DNA of 26,646 nucleotides from an uncultured Pirellulales bacterium. GTDB taxonomy: Bacteria; Planctomycetota; Phycisphaerae; Sedimentisphaerales; Anaerobacaceae. The position numbers were made by a program, and so were the translations under genes. Under the pieces are notes generated by a model, which saw only the letters and a list, made by a program, of their open reading frames with translations, ran no database searches and had not been told where the DNA came from. This document shows positions 147 to 26,646 of this stretch, piece after piece. The stretch spans positions 1 through 26,646 of the forward strand of contig CAYLMG010000007.1 of assembly GCA_964384565.1 (NCBI GenBank). The letters run 5' to 3'. The first letter of the stretch is position 1; every line of letters starts with the position of its first letter.

Positions 147-554
147 ATGAAAGCAAAAAGTGGTTTTACGTTGGTAGAAATTCTGATTGTCGTGGTTATT
201 CTGGGAATTCTGGCAGCTATTGTTATTCCGCAGTTCAGTAATGCGAGCTCGGAAGCTAAGCTGGCGAGTTTAAAGAGCAATCTCCAGTCGATTCGTGCTC
301 AGATTCAGCTCTATAAAATCAAAAATGATGATAGTTCTCCGACAGTTGCCGCTTTCACCAGCCAAATGACTACAGATGCTAACAATGGACCGTTTCTTCA
401 GTCCATACCCACCAATCCCTACACAGGTACCAACAGCGTGGTTGCGTGGGGTACCGGAGGCGGAGCCTGGGAGCTTGACGAGGATGGGACGGCCAACCCC
501 TCCGGTGAAGGAGGTGCGTTTAGAGCAGGTGATGCAGCTCATCAGGCTCTGTAA
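147..554 (+). CDS. Major type IV pilin / GspG-like pseudopilin
   Basis: Class III signal MKAKSG|FTLVEILIVVVILGILAAIVIP with E5. GPFLQSIPTNPY resembles the GspG GPYL..P.DPW segment. ATG at 147 is preferred over the TTG at 129. Confidence 0.92.
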   Translation: MKAKSGFTLVEILIVVVILGILAAIVIPQFSNASSEAKLASLKSNLQSIRAQIQLYKIKNDDSSPTVAAFTSQMTTDANNGPFLQSIPTNPYTGTNSVVAWGTGGGAWELDEDGTANPSGEGGAFRAGDAAHQAL

Positions 555-605
555 GAGCTGAAATAAGCAGATTTTCAGTATCTGATAGTTGAAAGGTACC
601 CATAA

Positions 606-638
606 CAGGCCGGCTGTTAATAGCCGGCCTGCTTTTTT
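606..638 (+). terminator. Rho-independent terminator after the major pilin
   Basis: Perfect stem CAGGCCGGCT/AGCCGGCCTG followed by CTTTTTT. Confidence 0.88.
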
Positions 639-717
639 ACATAAACTCGAAAAGATAACTGCCCGATAAATCAAAAGCGGATAACGAATTATTCTTATTT
701 TTCGCTTTTTAAAACAG

Positions 718-1152
718 ATGAGAAAGAAGTTAAGCACAACAAAGGCTTTTACGCTTACCGAAGCGATGATGGCCGTTGTGATTTTGGCCATAGCTGCTGC
801 AGGTTTGCTTTTGCCTTTTACCAGCGGTGCTGCCATGCAGGCTGAGGGTTCGCGATTGACTCTGGCAGCAAAACTGGCATCGGATTTGATGGAACAGATT
901 ATAAATACACCTTTCGATGATATTGTGAGCAGCTTTAATGGTTACAGCGAATCTCAGGGCCAGGTAAAAGATGCCGGCGGTTCGGTATTTACCGGTTCAC
1001 TTTATTCGAATTTCAGCAGGAATTCGAGTTGTTCCTACGTTTATTTCCCAAATGAGGATATGCGTGCATCGCCAAAATTCGTTCTTGCCACAGTCAGAGT
1101 GTATTACAAATCAGATGAGATTGTGAAAATAAACCGACTTATTACCCGGTAG
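718..1152 (+). CDS. Minor (pseudo)pilin, PilV/GspI-like
   Basis: KA|FTLTEAMMAVVILAIAA prepilin motif with E5; first of three consecutive minor pilins. Confidence 0.82.
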   Translation: MRKKLSTTKAFTLTEAMMAVVILAIAAAGLLLPFTSGAAMQAEGSRLTLAAKLASDLMEQIINTPFDDIVSSFNGYSESQGQVKDAGGSVFTGSLYSNFSRNSSCSYVYFPNEDMRASPKFVLATVRVYYKSDEIVKINRLITR

Positions 1153-1191: not shown

Positions 1192-1812
1192 ATGAGAAAA
1201 ACAAGATGTAATAATGGTTTTACACTTGCTGAACTGCTGGTTGCTTTAATGGTAACTTCTATTGTGCTCGCTGCCGTTGCTGCCCTTAGTTTTGCTATGA
1301 GTTCGGCAAATGATAGTACGGGTGATATTGCGGTTAAACAGGCGCAAATTCGCTTTGCTACAATTAAAATCAGAGACCTTATAACCAACTGTAGAATGAT
1401 ATGTCATCTCGAAGAGAATAATTTTGCTATCTGGAGAGCCGATGATAACGCTGATGGCTATATCAATCTTGATGAGCTGACATATCTCGGCAGTGATTAC
1501 GATAAAAGTTATGTTCGAACTTTAGAGTTTTATAACGACAGCCGTGTGTTGGATATCGCTGGTATATTGCCGCTTTCGTCAGGCTTAGGCGAATACGCAT
1601 GGTACCGTTCTCAGAAAATTATACCGGAATGTGAAAATGTCGAGCTTGCTGTCTACACCACACCGCCCTGGTCTGAATTTGCAAGAATCAGCTTTGATAT
1701 CGAAGAAAATGGTGTTATGCACCACTACGAGATAACAGCGGCGCTTCGAGCCTGGGCAGGTCATTTAATTAATGATTACGGGGATTTTATATTTGCAGAT
1801 GATGATGAATAA
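1192..1812 (+). CDS. Minor (pseudo)pilin, PilW/GspJ-like
   Basis: NG|FTLAELLVALMVTSIVLAAV prepilin motif, gene order and size. Confidence 0.82.
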   Translation: MRKTRCNNGFTLAELLVALMVTSIVLAAVAALSFAMSSANDSTGDIAVKQAQIRFATIKIRDLITNCRMICHLEENNFAIWRADDNADGYINLDELTYLGSDYDKSYVRTLEFYNDSRVLDIAGILPLSSGLGEYAWYRSQKIIPECENVELAVYTTPPWSEFARISFDIEENGVMHHYEITAALRAWAGHLINDYGDFIFADDDE

Positions 1813-21784: not shown

Positions 21785-23152
21785 ATGGCTGACGACAGCA
21801 TAATACTGGTCATAGATGACGAGCGTAACCACGCCGACGGAATCGTCGAGGCCCTTAAGAGTCTCGACGCAAAGGCTATAGCCGTTTATAACGACAAAGA
21901 TGCCCTCGAGCTTTTGCGGAGCGAAAAGGTCGACGTTGTTATTACCGACCTCAAGCTCGGCGGCGCTCTCGACGGCATCGGCATCCTCGAAGAGGTCAAA
22001 AAACAAAATCCCGATACCGAGGTAATCCTCGTTACCGCCTATGCGACTATCGATAACTGCAAAAAGGCCATCAAAATGGGTGCCTTCGATTATCTCGTCA
22101 AGCCTATCGATATCGACGAGCTTCGCACACTCACCCAGCAGGCCTGCCGAAAGGTTGAAGCCTCTGTAAGCCGAAAATTCCAAAGAGCAAAATCCGATAA
22201 ATGGGATTTCGTTTTCGACGGCGTCATAGGCGAGAGCAGGGCGATGCACGGCATCTTCGAGGTCCTCAAAAGAATCGCTTCATCGAACATCTCTGTCCTT
22301 ATCGAGGGCGAATCCGGTACCGGCAAAGAATTGCTCGCAAGGGCAATCCATAATAACTCACCGCGTGCGCACCAGCCTTTCAAACCGGTAAATTGTGCCG
22401 GCCTGACCGAGACACTGCTCGAAAGCGAGCTGTTCGGCCACGTCAAAGGCGCCTTCACAGGCGCTACCGGCGACCGCAAAGGCCTCTTTGAAATCGCCGA
22501 TAAGGGAACGCTGCTGCTCGACGAAATCGGCGATATGTCGCCTAACAGCCAGGCAAAGCTTTTAAGGGTCATCGAGGATGGCGTTATAATACCGGTCGGC
22601 TCGAATAAGTCAGCCGTCGTCGATGTAAGAGTTATCAGTGCGACGAACCAGGATTTAACCAGACTTATCGAGGAGAAAAAGTTCAGGCAGGATTTGTATT
22701 TCAGAATCAAGGGCGTAAGCATCCTCTTACCTGCCCTGCGTGACAGAAGCGAGGATATACCCGCCCTTGCCGATTTCTTCCTCGAAGAAGCAATCTCTGA
22801 GACCGGCTCTAAAGTTACCGGCATAACCGCTCCCGCGATTGATATTCTCAAATCGTACGATTGGCCGGGCAATATAAGACAGCTTAAAAACTGCATAAGG
22901 ACAATGGTAGTAATGGCCGAGTCCGATTCTCTCGACGTCTGCGACATCCCGCCCGATATCTCTCGCAGAAGACAGCTAAGTGCGGGCGTAAAGGCTGCTT
23001 CGGATTTATCCGGAATGTCGCTTAATGAAATTGAAAAGCAGGCGATTATAGATACCCTTAACCGGACGGGCAATAACCGCGAAAAGGCCGCAAAAATCCT
23101 CGGAATCGGTGAAAGAACACTATATAGAAAAATTAAAGAGTATAATCTTTAA
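21785..23152 (+). CDS. Sigma54-dependent response regulator (REC-AAA+-Fis HTH; NtrC/AtoC family)
   Basis: LVIDDE, VITDL, GESGTGKE, ESELFGHVKGAFTGA, LLDEIG, FRQDLYFR, WPGNIRQL and a C-terminal HTH. Confidence 0.97.
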   Translation: MADDSIILVIDDERNHADGIVEALKSLDAKAIAVYNDKDALELLRSEKVDVVITDLKLGGALDGIGILEEVKKQNPDTEVILVTAYATIDNCKKAIKMGAFDYLVKPIDIDELRTLTQQACRKVEASVSRKFQRAKSDKWDFVFDGVIGESRAMHGIFEVLKRIASSNISVLIEGESGTGKELLARAIHNNSPRAHQPFKPVNCAGLTETLLESELFGHVKGAFTGATGDRKGLFEIADKGTLLLDEIGDMSPNSQAKLLRVIEDGVIIPVGSNKSAVVDVRVISATNQDLTRLIEEKKFRQDLYFRIKGVSILLPALRDRSEDIPALADFFLEEAISETGSKVTGITAPAIDILKSYDWPGNIRQLKNCIRTMVVMAESDSLDVCDIPPDISRRRQLSAGVKAASDLSGMSLNEIEKQAIIDTLNRTGNNREKAAKILGIGERTLYRKIKEYNL

Positions 23153-23249
23153 TTTAGAAGGTCTCGCCACCATCGGCTTCGCCGATAGGCGAGTAGGCGG
23201 ACCTGTCTCGCCAAAGGCGGATCGAAAAATTAAGGAATATAATCTCTAA
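23126..23249 (+). repeat. Diverged 27-bp direct repeat of the regulator 3' end (23126-23152 and 23223-23249)
   Basis: AGAAAAATTAAAGAGTATAATCTTTAA vs CGAAAAATTAAGGAATATAATCTCTAA; both read RKIKEYNL*. Confidence 0.9.
23161..23222. repeat. REP-like GC-rich palindromic element
   Basis: Nested stems CTCGCC/GGCGAG and ATCGGC-ttc-GCCGAT; GTCTCGCC and AGGCGGA each occur twice. Confidence 0.6.
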
Positions 23250-23346
23250 ACGAGATACGAAACTGTTTGGCGTTTTATGCAGACGGTATAATTACAGTTG
23301 GGAATTTAAAGAGATGCTTTATATGACATAAGCAAGTGAGGAAGAT

Positions 23347-24435
23347 ATGTCCATACAAAGTCGAATGGAAGAGATTGTTGAAACCAACGTAAATTTTAAT
23401 ATGAGGGAGTTGGCGGATGCAGTGTGGCCGCTGATCGAAGCCCTACCGGATGTTTCTGAGGTAGTCCCGGTTTTACGTGATCTTTTGGGAACCAACTACC
23501 GTAAGTTGTCATATTGCATCCTGCGGAATGCTTTTCTCATTGAGTTGGTGAAAGTTCCTAAGATCGAAACCACTAAGTTCCGTGTACGTTGGTTTGATCA
23601 GCTTAATGGTGATCCGAGATATTGTTCTTTTGATGAATGTGTGAACATTGCCACAAACCTTCTGACAACCTTGCCTGCGTGGCTACAAACCTCAGTTCAT
23701 TTTGAATGTATGAAATTATCATTCTCCAGTGGCATGATTCCTTATGAAGCGCCTTTGGATTACTCACATCGTTTTACTGCACAAGGACGCTTGCATCAAC
23801 AAGGCAATTTGATTTGGTTTTATGATGAACTAATTTTACGAACTCTCAAACTTAGAAAATTCCTAACCGATAGCTCTACCAGTCCCGACCATAAGTTTTT
23901 TAAGAATGTGCTGTCTGACAAAATTAAAGTTAAAACATATCTCACCGATCGAGTTTTAACCGGCGACTATAAAACCAACCGGGAAAAAAGGTGGGAAACC
24001 CATCCTAATTCTGTTCATTTCGCTGAACGCCGAGTATGTATGGCAATCGAGTATGCCCTAGTAACACAGATTTGTGCGTTTGAGGGGTTTCCCCAATCTT
24101 CGCTTATCAAGTTACAACAAGCTAATGTTTTGCCTCAAAATCTTCCCACGGCTTTATGTCCCATTACGGGTGATGAGTTGTCGTATGAAGCCTTCCGGAG
24201 TGAACTGTTAAAACCAACTCATGGAAAGTCAGATTTTCAAGTAGGACACTTGAATCCATTAAAACTTAGTGTAGATGGTGAGGCTGCTGGTCATACGGCT
24301 AATAATATCAGTTGGATTTCTGCCGATGGCAACCGTATCCAAGGAAGTCTTAGCTTAAATGATGTCAGAAAACTAATTCAACGTATTTCACAAAACTATA
24401 ATCGTCATGGTTGGTGGCCACATCCATCCGACTGA
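23347..24435 (+). CDS. Putative restriction endonuclease, HNH/His-Me-finger-like C-terminus
   Basis: CPITG..FQVGHLNP..GH..NISWISADGNRIQG fits H-N-N spacing; adjacent to a DNA methyltransferase. Confidence 0.65.
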   Translation: MSIQSRMEEIVETNVNFNMRELADAVWPLIEALPDVSEVVPVLRDLLGTNYRKLSYCILRNAFLIELVKVPKIETTKFRVRWFDQLNGDPRYCSFDECVNIATNLLTTLPAWLQTSVHFECMKLSFSSGMIPYEAPLDYSHRFTAQGRLHQQGNLIWFYDELILRTLKLRKFLTDSSTSPDHKFFKNVLSDKIKVKTYLTDRVLTGDYKTNREKRWETHPNSVHFAERRVCMAIEYALVTQICAFEGFPQSSLIKLQQANVLPQNLPTALCPITGDELSYEAFRSELLKPTHGKSDFQVGHLNPLKLSVDGEAAGHTANNISWISADGNRIQGSLSLNDVRKLIQRISQNYNRHGWWPHPSD

Positions 24436-26411
24436 AGTGTTACACAGGCTCGTGCTTCTTTCGTCAATTCTCGTGCCTCAATTCGTTTAGTAACTGCCTG
24501 TCGAACCAATCTAGTGATGTGATTACGAGCCTTTTTTGACTTTGTTACTGGTAAAATCAATTCGTTAATGCGTTCCCCAAGGCTGTCAATAATATCTTGA
24601 GTGAACTGCTTGGAGCGTATTTGTTTTTGAACTGCCGTTGAACTTAAAATCGCTAGCAAGAGATATGGATTCATATCATAAGAGTTGGAATTTACCCTTA
24701 TTTTATATAGATGGCTTTGATAAAGAATTTCTCTATCGGTTTCACTGACGATGGCGCAAGTTCCGATAAGATATGTTCCATCCTTTACCATTAGAATATC
24801 GCCGGGTTTTACATCTTGCTTATCTTTAAGCCTTTGGTAAATCTCACGGGATACTCCATGTTTGGGATCCGCTTTCAGCTCCCAGTTAGTAATATCTGAT
24901 GTCCGGATAAATGGAATTGTCCCCGTTCCGTAGGCGAGTTTTCCAATTTCATCTCCTGTAGTTATACTTATAACTTTTTCTGCTATCAGTTGTGAAATTG
25001 GAAGAAGGGTATGAGTTTTATTCAATCCTTTCAGTTCTTGTTCTGCTTGTGGGTCGTAATAGCGTGGACACAACACCCCACTTAAGATTTTTTCTTTATC
25101 AATAGAGAAACCGAGATTAGACGGCTTGATTTTCTTGTTTTTTCTATACGCAACATAGTTATCAGCTATCTCAGGTAAATCATTATGCGGAATTACACGC
25201 GCTCTGGAGTCTTGTCCGCACCATTTTGCCTCAGCCATGAACACCGTTTCGGTCTTTCTATTTCTTTTAACACCGTTTTTAGTTGCTATCAATAAACAGG
25301 TCTTCGTGTGAGTTCCACCTTTGCCAGAGGTCTTAAACAATGCTTCTGGCATACCCATGACGGCATGAATATCGGCGTGCCGAAGTAAGTACTCGACGAC
25401 GTTACGGTATGATTTATTTGAAAGAATGCTTTCCGGTAAAACCATACCCAAACGACCACCAGGCTTAAGTAGGGATAAACAACGTTCCACAAATAGTACC
25501 TGTGGAGGTACGTTGCTTTGTATTTTGTCCGATGGACGCAATAACCCTGTCTTGGGATCTTTAGTCCACTTGTGGGCGAGATCAAAGGTCTCTAGCACTT
25601 CTGGAGAGGCCGCAACAATACGAACACCAAATGGAGGATTAGTTAGAATTACATCTACACCATCCTTAGGTAGATACTCGCGGATGCTTTTCTGTCCATT
25701 ATTTAAAGAAATGCTATCGCCGTTGATTACTGTGGGGTAGGCACCCGTAAGTAATGTAATATGGATTATAGCTAGTCTTGCCAGATAGGTATCTTTATCA
25801 ATACCATAAAGATGCTTGGAAACTCGGTTAGGCGCGAATCCTTGTTTTTCCAAGTGGGCACAGACGGAAGATAGAAATCCACCTGCTCCACATGCTGGGT
25901 CTAAGATCGTTTCATAAGGCTTTGGATCTAAAGCCTGAACTAGTAGATTGGTTACTGAACGAGGGGTGAAAAATTGACCCGCATTGCCTTTGGATTCGCT
26001 ACCAACGAATACCTCAAAGGCGTCGCCGATTGGATCGCTCTCGGCATCCATAATGGAAAAGTCTAATTCACCCATAACGTAGTGCAAAGTATTTGGATCC
26101 AATAGGATTTCAGTATCCTGCGCATAAATATCCGGAAAGCGGCCTCGAACGGTGGTGAATATTGCGCGTATCCGCTTGGCTAACTGTATGTGGTTGTCAG
26201 TGCGGTCCATTTTTTCTACTTCACCGCGTTCGATTACCAGCTTGCAGAAAAGGCACTTTAGCACTTCGTCTAGTAATGTATCATCACGAGTAGCACCGAC
26301 GAACTGACCTGCAAGGTAGTTTCGAACATTACGGAACGCTTCTTTTGTGGTTTTTTTTTCTTGGAAGAGTGATGTTTGACGGGCATCGGGGTGCTTCTTA
26401 GGCCTTGCCAT
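24405..26411 (-). CDS. N6-adenine DNA methyltransferase, HsdM-like, fused to an HsdS-like specificity domain
   Basis: GQFFTPR, ILDPACGAGGFL (motif I) and NPPFG (motif IV); C-terminal PFIRTSDI..KPGDILMVKDGT..G. ATG at 26411 follows a GGAGA SD. Confidence 0.9.
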   Translation of the reverse strand: MARPKKHPDARQTSLFQEKKTTKEAFRNVRNYLAGQFVGATRDDTLLDEVLKCLFCKLVIERGEVEKMDRTDNHIQLAKRIRAIFTTVRGRFPDIYAQDTEILLDPNTLHYVMGELDFSIMDAESDPIGDAFEVFVGSESKGNAGQFFTPRSVTNLLVQALDPKPYETILDPACGAGGFLSSVCAHLEKQGFAPNRVSKHLYGIDKDTYLARLAIIHITLLTGAYPTVINGDSISLNNGQKSIREYLPKDGVDVILTNPPFGVRIVAASPEVLETFDLAHKWTKDPKTGLLRPSDKIQSNVPPQVLFVERCLSLLKPGGRLGMVLPESILSNKSYRNVVEYLLRHADIHAVMGMPEALFKTSGKGGTHTKTCLLIATKNGVKRNRKTETVFMAEAKWCGQDSRARVIPHNDLPEIADNYVAYRKNKKIKPSNLGFSIDKEKILSGVLCPRYYDPQAEQELKGLNKTHTLLPISQLIAEKVISITTGDEIGKLAYGTGTIPFIRTSDITNWELKADPKHGVSREIYQRLKDKQDVKPGDILMVKDGTYLIGTCAIVSETDREILYQSHLYKIRVNSNSYDMNPYLLLAILSSTAVQKQIRSKQFTQDIIDSLGERINELILPVTKSKKARNHITRLVRQAVTKRIEARELTKEARACVTLQSDGCGHQP

Positions 26412-26447
26412 GATTTCTCCACACAATATGTTTTGCTATTTTTCTAA

Positions 26448-26476: not shown

Positions 26477-26525
26477 GCACCTATTGTGGAAATTATAGTT
26501 GAATTCTTTTTATTCGTTTTTTTTA

Positions 26526-26553
26526 TTGACAAATAGGCCAAATATGATATAAA
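26526..26553 (+). promoter_or_regulatory. Near-consensus sigma70-type promoter facing out of the window
   Basis: TTGACA-N16-TATAAA with an extended -10 (TGn) and a T-rich upstream tract. Confidence 0.72.
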
Positions 26554-26554
26554 A

Positions 26555-26646
26555 GAACCCGTGTGTTAGCAAGCACACGTAACGCGGAGCACCGCAAGCA
26601 TCGGCCAGCAGGCCAAGATAACTGGTGAGCGAAGTCGAACCAGTCA
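26555..26646 (+). ncRNA. Candidate structured RNA or leader with three AGCA-loop hairpins (may continue past the window edge)
   Basis: CGTGTGTT-AGCA-AGCACACG, GCGG-AGCA-CCGC and GGCC-AGCA-GGCC directly after the promoter. Confidence 0.5.
26621..26644. repeat. REP-like palindrome ACTGGT-GAGCGAAGTCGA-ACCAGT
   Basis: 6-bp stem around a GAGC..GTCGA core, which I recall from dispersed bacterial palindromic repeats. Copy number cannot be checked here. Confidence 0.5.

Follow-up and report, generated by a model that had tools for sequence, protein, structure and literature searches.

A promoter with three covarying hairpins at a contig end is probably the 5' leader module of a repeated cassette in an uncultured genus of Planctomycetota

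The window, that is, the whole stretch of 26,646 nt analysed here, is the entire contig C7 of a MAG that comprises 235 contigs and is 81% complete, and its end falls inside a repeat. Downstream of a gene for a sigma-54 regulator, positions 23152-26426 form a variable island when compared with loci L083, L084 and L085: the genome itself carries a restriction-modification pair there, the same-genus genome G001 a TIR-like gene among others, and G003 a different methyltransferase. The methyltransferase gene that adjoins the promoter described below was not found in four same-genus genomes, in which the repeat alone matches. The contig end is made up of the following features:

26510 to 26525, + strand: T-rich, UP-element-like tract, read directly; a T-run is kept at the equivalent place in 52 copies.
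26526 to 26531, + strand: -35 hexamer TTGACA, read directly; other copies have TTGATA or TTGAAC in the same register.
26545 to 26553, + strand: extended -10 TGATATAAA, read directly; the consensus of 52 copies is TGGTATAAT.
26560 to 26579, + strand: hairpin H1, 8 bp including one U-G pair, loop AGCA, taken from the fold; it begins 6 nt past the -10.
26584 to 26595, + strand: hairpin H2, GCGG-AGCA-CCGC, taken from direct reading, fold and copy alignment.
26597 to 26600, + strand: AGCA in the linker, as part of a linker A[AC]GCATC that the alignment restricts to the subfamily with a GGCC stem.
26603 to 26614, + strand: hairpin H3, GGCC-AGCA-GGCC, taken from direct reading, fold and covariation.
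26615 to 26617, + strand: AAG, the first half of AAGTCAAA, a motif that follows H3 in nearly all copies, other genera included.
26618 to 26643, + strand: inserted palindromic element, ATAA plus a hairpin with stem CTGGT/ACCAG and loop GAGCGAAGTCGA; the palindrome itself spans 26622-26643.
26644 to 26646, + strand: TCA, where AAGTCAAA resumes and the contig terminates.

Read directly, the -35 hexamer is separated by 16 nt from a TG-extended -10 (TG at 26545-46, TATAAA at 26548-53), and the two are predicted to form a near-consensus sigma-70 promoter upstream of H1. A consensus scan did not report it. The rule of that scan demands a T at position 6 of the -10, where an A is found here, and the promoter call therefore rests on the direct reading together with conservation among copies. 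The foot of H1 would lie at, or adjacent to, the 5' end of the transcript. The region 26558-26646 folds into exactly four hairpins in ViennaRNA, namely H1, H2, H3 and the palindrome, with an MFE of -30.9 kcal/mol and a z of -2.69, and this stability is matched by one of 200 shuffles. Four hairpins with an AGCA loop and a stem of at least 4 bp occur on the + strand of the window, three of which are H1-H3. Block shuffles yield a mean of 2.3 such hairpins per 26.6-kb window, and three within 60 nt in none of 300 cases; the cluster is real and not a product of chance. The only other AGCA-loop hairpin on this strand (1004-1029) has an 11-bp stem and is located between the open reading frames 270-836 (-) and 1192-1812 (+), where it may be a terminator or an operator. 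An earlier note on this DNA had described a near-consensus promoter, three subsequent hairpins that all display AGCA and a further unpaired AGCA in the linker, and the direct reading, the fold and the shuffles bear out this description. The search of Rfam that was proposed there returned no family: Rfam 15 gave nothing significant for the window end (E up to 10) or for three other copies (E up to 1).

The module is far from unique to this contig end. In the own assembly (G000), promoter and hairpins appear again on contigs C125 and C107, with a partial copy at the start of C194, and same-genus genomes yield 14-25 blastn matches each. A covariance model (R1), built from 17 copies with the three stems as its structure, matches 29, 35 and 28 times in the three better-assembled MAGs of the same genus (G001, G003 and G004, respectively), 11 times in a fragmented one (G002) and three times in the fragmented own MAG. 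Five sister genera of the same family contain 1-5 diverged copies each, and R1 has no match in seven other families of the order. The exact H1 pattern occurs at 42 loci among approximately 185,000 species genomes, all within four MAGs named "uncultured Pirellulales bacterium". In total, the module is kept in more than 100 copies, with covariation. Judged from this distribution, the cassette to which it belongs appears specific to one uncultured genus of Planctomycetota (NCBI label "Pirellulales"), with diverged relatives in the sister genera.

The copies allow the stems and loops to be examined separately. In an alignment of 49 copies to R1, 98.8% of the cells pair in standard fashion, compared with 29-64% after the 3' partners have been shifted by 1-3 columns; as R1 itself guided the alignment and the copies are paralogues of one another, these figures lean towards structure and the counts are not independent. 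Changes on both sides are found in 11 of the 16 pairs, and the observed covariation score is reached by no shuffle. The stems of H1, H2 and H3 are thus all supported by covariation. In H1, seven of the eight pairs change on both sides, mostly between genera: the main subfamily has GTGTGTT/AACACAC, and the other genera have GTTTGCC/GGCAAAC, CGCC/GGCG or CCCGC/GCGGG. The H1 stem opens with a U-G pair in 27 copies, whose counterpart on the other strand, A-C, would be a mismatch; this speaks for a fold of the sense-strand RNA. H2 is built on GCGG/CCGC or GAGGA/TCCTC, with a C-G pair replaced by A-U in 11 copies, and contains the most conserved sequence of the module (GCGGAG or GGGAGGA, always with GGA). 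The stem variants of H3 are GAAC/GTTC, GGCC/GGCC, GACC/GGTC and GGGC/GCCC, and the subfamily with the GAAC stem has linkers other than A[AC]GCATC. A second H1 subfamily within the genus (L042, L130, L132 and L136; G001 and G003) has overlapping GGGG/CCCC/GGGG arms in place of the GTGTGTT hairpin, and these arms could form two alternative hairpins.

The loops follow a looser rule. Among the 49 copies, the H1 loop is AGCA in 19 (plus two with AGCAT), AGAA in 17 and AGTA in four; the H2 loop is AGGC in nine, AGAA in six, AGCA in two and one of many other AGNN sequences elsewhere; and the H3 loop is AGCA in 21, AGAA in five, AAGCC in five, AGCC in three, CGTC in three and others in the remainder. 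Put differently, around 42 of the 49 H1 loops conform to AGNA, and around 30 loops each of H2 and H3 conform to AGNN. The window copy alone has AGCA in all three loops. The loop feature common to the family is a bias towards AGNN tetraloops and not an AGCA motif. Genome-wide, AGCA is absent from the 25 commonest tetraloops on stems of at least 6 bp.

The window copy is assembled only to 26646, and the layout further downstream is read from the other copies. A complete cassette measures about 0.45-0.65 kb. The -35, a spacer of 16-17 nt and the TG-extended -10 are conserved across copies at a fixed register, and the distance between promoter and H1 is fixed in every copy. After H3, where the complete cassette has AAGUCAAA, the order in G001, G003 and G004 is likewise fixed: AAGTCAAA, an AU-rich spacer of about 30 nt, a Shine-Dalgarno sequence (AAGGA or similar), an ATG 5-10 nt further on, a hypervariable region of 7-8-nt quasi-repeats and small GC hairpins, and finally a constant domain of about 180 nt. 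This domain opens with TGCAAAAC(G/A)AA(C/G)CCAATTT, is rich in C/A direct repeats and contains two covarying hairpins and one decamer that is directly repeated two or three times. It ends in a complementary arm and a T run that resemble an intrinsic terminator, and it is closed by a perfect or near-perfect inverted repeat of 17-18 nt, which forms a long-range helix. The fold of a full-length copy has a z of -4.6. The constant domain is present, 174-477 nt past H1, in each of the 32 copies whose flank extends for 800 nt or more, and in 28 of these the terminator arm is found at a fixed offset. In G001, about 27 constant domains match the 5' modules one to one, apart from one solitary domain and one copy into which an IS1595-like gene has inserted. 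On this basis, the window feature is probably the promoter-proximal 5' leader module of a repeated promoter-leader-terminator cassette.

Some observations concern the surroundings and integrity of individual copies. The DNA upstream of many promoters (e.g., L026:400-520, L028:400-500 and, on C125, L005 210-330) is likewise made of repeated modules, comprising the heptamer or octamer quasi-repeats TTCTGNA, GGATTTCG and ATACACTN and a conserved block that resembles GCTCATCGCGGCCTCCGGCA; the window copy is devoid of these upstream modules. The IS1595-like transposase gene encodes 295 amino acids (L136:374-1261 (+), in G001:C27), is accompanied by about 3 kb of cargo and sits just past AAGTCAAA, where it parts the 5' module from the leader ORF and the constant domain. 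This copy, whose 5' and 3' parts are 3.4 kb apart, had been a candidate for a master copy with its own transposase, and was rejected as an IS1595-like interruption and not an autonomous form.

The palindrome at the very end of the contig is an insertion as well. It splits AAGTCAAA into AAG, insert and TCA, and the identical insertion point (AAG|TCAAA) is found in G001:C12, G003:C144 and G003:C173, the last of which has a second copy nested in the first. Related hairpins are present within the H3 loop (C194 and L043) and within the H2 loop (L033 and L073). As a family, these elements combine a conserved 12-nt loop, GAGCGNAGTCGA, with stems that vary in a compensating manner. About eight copies reside in the own assembly; sites include window 26618-26643 and G000 C194:21-44, C3, C39, C61 and C108, as well as L131 and L132, sometimes in nested form. 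The palindrome appears to be a small element in its own right, with a preference for hairpin loops and the AAGTCAAA motif, and not a part of the module. The earlier note was correct that a palindrome follows H3 (26622-26643); its description as REP-like gives way to that of a small hairpin element inserted in AAGTCAAA.

Constant-domain fragments are located 31-39 nt away from three further contig ends of the own assembly, and the assembler evidently breaks at the cassette repeat. As a genome has about 30 occurrences of the cassette, the contig breaks of this MAG are accounted for. The last 15-127 bases of C7 show no overlap with any other contig of the own assembly. C194 and C7 share 17 nt only and then diverge, and their adjacency is possible. 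C125:1-65 and C194:74-138 (G000) overlap by 55-65 nt within the cassette spacer, and C194 continues through the leader ORF into a gene for an ECF sigma factor; C125, C7 and C194 may represent alleles, or neighbours left unresolved in the assembly. The position at a contig end had also suggested the leader of an rRNA operon. This candidate was rejected, as copies within long contigs lead into a Shine-Dalgarno sequence, an ATG and protein genes; the own MAG contains no 16S rRNA gene.

The reading frame that starts at the conserved ATG is maintained to a striking degree. Its first stop comes after a median of 172 codons, against 12 and 5 codons in the two other frames; it is the longest frame in 34 of 34 copies, and the open frame after H3 exceeds 80 codons in complete copies. 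Between the ATG and the constant domain, 38 of 42 unique copies have a number of nucleotides divisible by three, across 28 distinct lengths between 84 and 283 nt, where about 14 of 42 would be expected by chance, and 37 of these 38 in-frame copies are also free of stops. No codon periodicity is seen in the constant domain (entropy of 0.69, 0.77 and 0.60 by codon position). Its common substitutions are coupled changes that preserve the complementarity of the direct and inverted repeats. A conserved stop is absent as well: the frame exits the cassette to the first stop in the flank, or enters the next gene or its shadow frame. The stop of the leader meets the next start in two of the co-oriented copies, once as an ATGA overlap and once 5 nt before the ATG of HisF. 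Searches of the leader ORFs against Pfam and NCBIfam returned no family or domain, and gene callers have annotated 38 of them as hypothetical proteins. We read this pattern as selection for translation through the element and not for a particular product.

The genes downstream of the copies are unrelated to each other and include DNA polymerase I (PolI), GpsA, an FAD oxidoreductase, an ECF sigma factor, Lgt, HisF and others; in another case, a receiver protein is followed by GroES/GroEL. According to a rough open-frame heuristic, 16 of 31 copies are co-oriented with the next gene, eight are convergent and seven are ambiguous. One convergent case is confirmed by homology: in G001 and G004, the gene orthologous to the window's sigma-54 regulator has a copy pointing at its 3' end. 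At this locus, the cassette is present in G001 and G004 and absent in G003, with boundaries too mosaic for calling target-site duplications. Given that some copies are convergent with the next gene, a pure role as leader of that gene cannot fit all copies. In two genera, the same promoter-hairpin module is found ahead of a real gene of 187-202 amino acids, P0039 (L130:803-1363 (-) in G001:C12 and L054:1617-2222 (+) in G007), whose family consists of hypothetical proteins and is commonest in Planctomycetota. The 187-amino-acid protein has no Pfam or NCBIfam domain, and it was not found in the own assembly when used as the query.

These results change the picture that the earlier note had drawn. 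Its notion of a promoter-driven structured RNA gains from the fixed promoter register, the covarying stems and the sense-strand G-U pairs, and loses its stand-alone sponge part. The proposed CsrB/RsmZ-like sponge with AGCA as its motif is not supported: the feature is a multi-copy DNA repeat, AGCA is not conserved in the loops, and H3 is followed by a Shine-Dalgarno sequence, an ATG and an open frame instead of a terminator. A false lead to a new sponge RNA is thereby removed. The alternative offered in the same place, in which the RNA is the regulatory leader for a gene beyond the window, came closest. In complete copies the module reads as a 5' leader, with the reservation that some of them are convergent.

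If the module indeed functions as a 5' leader, transcription would start a few bases from the foot of H1 and give an RNA with a base-paired 5' end, in which H1 would protect the transcript. In other bacteria, 5'-terminal stem-loops slow the decay that depends on the 5' end. The hairpins would act in cis on the translated leader RNA, with the GGA of H2 and that of the Shine-Dalgarno sequence (AAGGA) as candidate sites for CsrA or another regulator. A csrA gene is located at G000:C108:3429-3584 (-), with 86.5 bits against PF02599, and is also present in G001 and G004. With CsrA encoded and GGA in both H2 and the Shine-Dalgarno sequence, two-site CsrA control of leader translation is possible. 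Alternatively, a protein may read the AGNN loops, which are possible protein contacts. Further downstream, ribosomes on the stop-free leader would travel over the direct repeats, which are rich in C and poor in G, and over the terminator-like helix. A ribosome coupled to the polymerase would suppress termination and permit read-through to the next gene, and termination would follow when the two are uncoupled. Such translation-gated read-through would explain a conserved frame without a conserved peptide. We propose this specific mechanism, a ribosome-coupled control of read-through of the pyrBI type, tentatively and with about half the confidence that we place in the cassette reading. Convergent copies may have been recently transposed, or may serve as bidirectional insulators only.

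In a more far-reaching version, a mobile cassette would have distributed an RNA regulon across the genome. Each of some 30 strong promoters would produce a transcript with three AGNN hairpins and an invariant GGA at its 5' end, to be read by a common RNA-binding protein (CsrA or a loop binder), translation of the leader would gate the built-in terminator, and many unrelated housekeeping genes would be tied to translational capacity. Taken in full, we consider this version an outside chance.

Other explanations for the same features have to be weighed against the cassette reading. H1-H3 could constitute an RNA that binds a protein in trans, either as a stand-alone sRNA or after cleavage from the leader in the AU-rich spacer, so that some 30 loci with three AGNN loops each titrate a dedicated RNA-binding protein. 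The shared AGNN/AGNA bias of loops on three non-homologous stems speaks for it, as do the recurrence of C-AGCA-G hairpins on unrelated stems in other genera, the number of copies and the strength of their promoters by sequence. Yet H3 is followed by a Shine-Dalgarno sequence and an ATG at a fixed distance and not by a terminator, each RNA offers 3-4 loops only, and AGCA itself is neither conserved nor among the 25 commonest tetraloops of the genome on stems of at least 6 bp. Moreover, the H2 and H3 loops tolerate palindromes, which argues against strict loop recognition there, and a role in trans is distinctly unlikely. The view that the cassette is simply a family of small-protein genes of about 110-200 amino acids, with a variable N-terminus, a constant C-terminus and hairpins that are just the 5' UTR, draws on the Shine-Dalgarno sequence and ATG with a long maintained frame, on the 38 matches called as hypothetical proteins across many MAGs, and on the real 187-amino-acid gene behind the same 5' module in two genera. 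However, variation at the third codon position is not in excess, the coupled changes fit RNA pairing and not codons, the frame crosses the terminator-like hairpin into the flank without a conserved stop, and Pfam and NCBIfam domains are missing from the leader ORFs. We rate this view as very unlikely. As for a mere chance cluster of three similar hairpins, 4-bp stems are short and AGCA is a common word, but none of the 300 shuffles and the more than 100 conserved, covarying copies leave it practically no room.

The hairpins could also matter at the DNA level, as marks recognised by the transposase of a MITE-like or single-strand-transposed element, or, in the case of H1 (TGTGT-N6-ACACA, centred near +10), as the operator of a dimeric repressor at about 30 promoters. 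The multiple copies beside unrelated genes in both orientations and the presence or absence of the cassette at an orthologous locus would be consistent with this, and so would the small palindromes in hairpin loops, which insert as hairpin-targeting elements would. The nearly invariant H1 sequence within the main subfamily of the genus would fit sequence-specific recognition of DNA, although the H1 stems of other genera have only 4 bp. Terminal inverted repeats that join the cassette ends are lacking, nevertheless, long inverted repeats being found only inside the constant domain, and no associated transposase was seen, as the one IS1595-like gene interrupts a copy. The G-U pairs of the sense strand correspond to A-C mismatches on the other strand, and the fixed promoter register, the Shine-Dalgarno/ATG and the maintained frame are properties of a transcript. 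A role at the DNA level seems unlikely to us.

For a bacterial repeat, it is unusual that one portable unit joins a strong promoter to a start codon and to a 5' UTR with covariation support. Equally unusual is a frame without conserved amino acids that nonetheless stays open through a hypervariable insert in 38 of 42 copies. If the proposed mechanism holds, expression would be controlled by the act of translation and not by the peptide, and this control would have been copied ahead of PolI, GroES/EL, HisF, Lgt, an ECF sigma factor and other genes of a phylum that has been little studied. In the genetics of Planctomycetota, the module could also be put to use as a ready expression part.

Several known systems resemble the cassette in part. 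With CsrB/RsmZ, it shares a short repeated motif in hairpin loops and a genome that encodes CsrA. It differs in its 3-4 loops, in AGNN instead of GGA, in the lack of a terminator after H3 and in the lack of an Rfam match; a sponge sRNA of the CsrB/RsmZ type was rejected on the grounds of no family match, no terminator of its own, few loops and an unconserved motif. In leader-peptide attenuators such as pyrBI and tnaC, a translating ribosome masks a terminator or a Rho site. Here, the likeness as read from sequence lies in a promoter, a short and putatively translated leader that spans a terminator-like hairpin and a stretch rich in C and poor in G, and a subsequent gene that would be regulated; the Shine-Dalgarno/ATG frame passes through the terminator-like helix and the U-tract in most copies. 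In contrast, pyrBI and tnaC are single-copy systems of one operon with conserved peptides or regulatory codons, whereas the cassette has about 30 copies with hypervariable peptides, some without a co-oriented gene.

BOX elements of Streptococcus pneumoniae and BIMEs of E. coli are modular intergenic repeats with constant ends and a variable number of internal units. The cassette resembles them in its modular build, its many hairpins, its tens to hundreds of intergenic copies and its nested small palindromes. To our knowledge, neither BOX nor BIME has a fixed promoter, a Shine-Dalgarno/ATG or a constraint on the reading frame. Putative mobile promoters were reportedly described by Matus-Garcia, Nijveen and van Passel in 2012. 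A commentary presents them as highly similar promoter regions upstream of unrelated genes, most of them without an Rfam family and with a mobilisation route that is not known (PMC3575422). The likeness consists of similar promoter-bearing copies beside non-homologous genes within one genome and of the missing Rfam match, and the Correia elements of Neisseria are promoter-bearing repeats of the same kind. Compared with both, the cassette is much longer and has a structured 5' UTR, a Shine-Dalgarno/ATG, a frame-maintained leader and a terminator-like end; it is without terminal inverted repeats, and about a quarter of its copies are convergent with the next gene. A classical MITE was considered as well and rejected, as no inverted repeat exists between the promoter end and the 3' end of the cassette. 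We know of no case among mobile promoters, Correia elements, BOX and BIME in which a translated leader with a maintained frame occurs together with a fixed promoter and a structured 5' UTR. By its build, the cassette appears to be a repeat of the mobile-promoter or mosaic-repeat kind, with the putative mobile promoter as its nearest concept.
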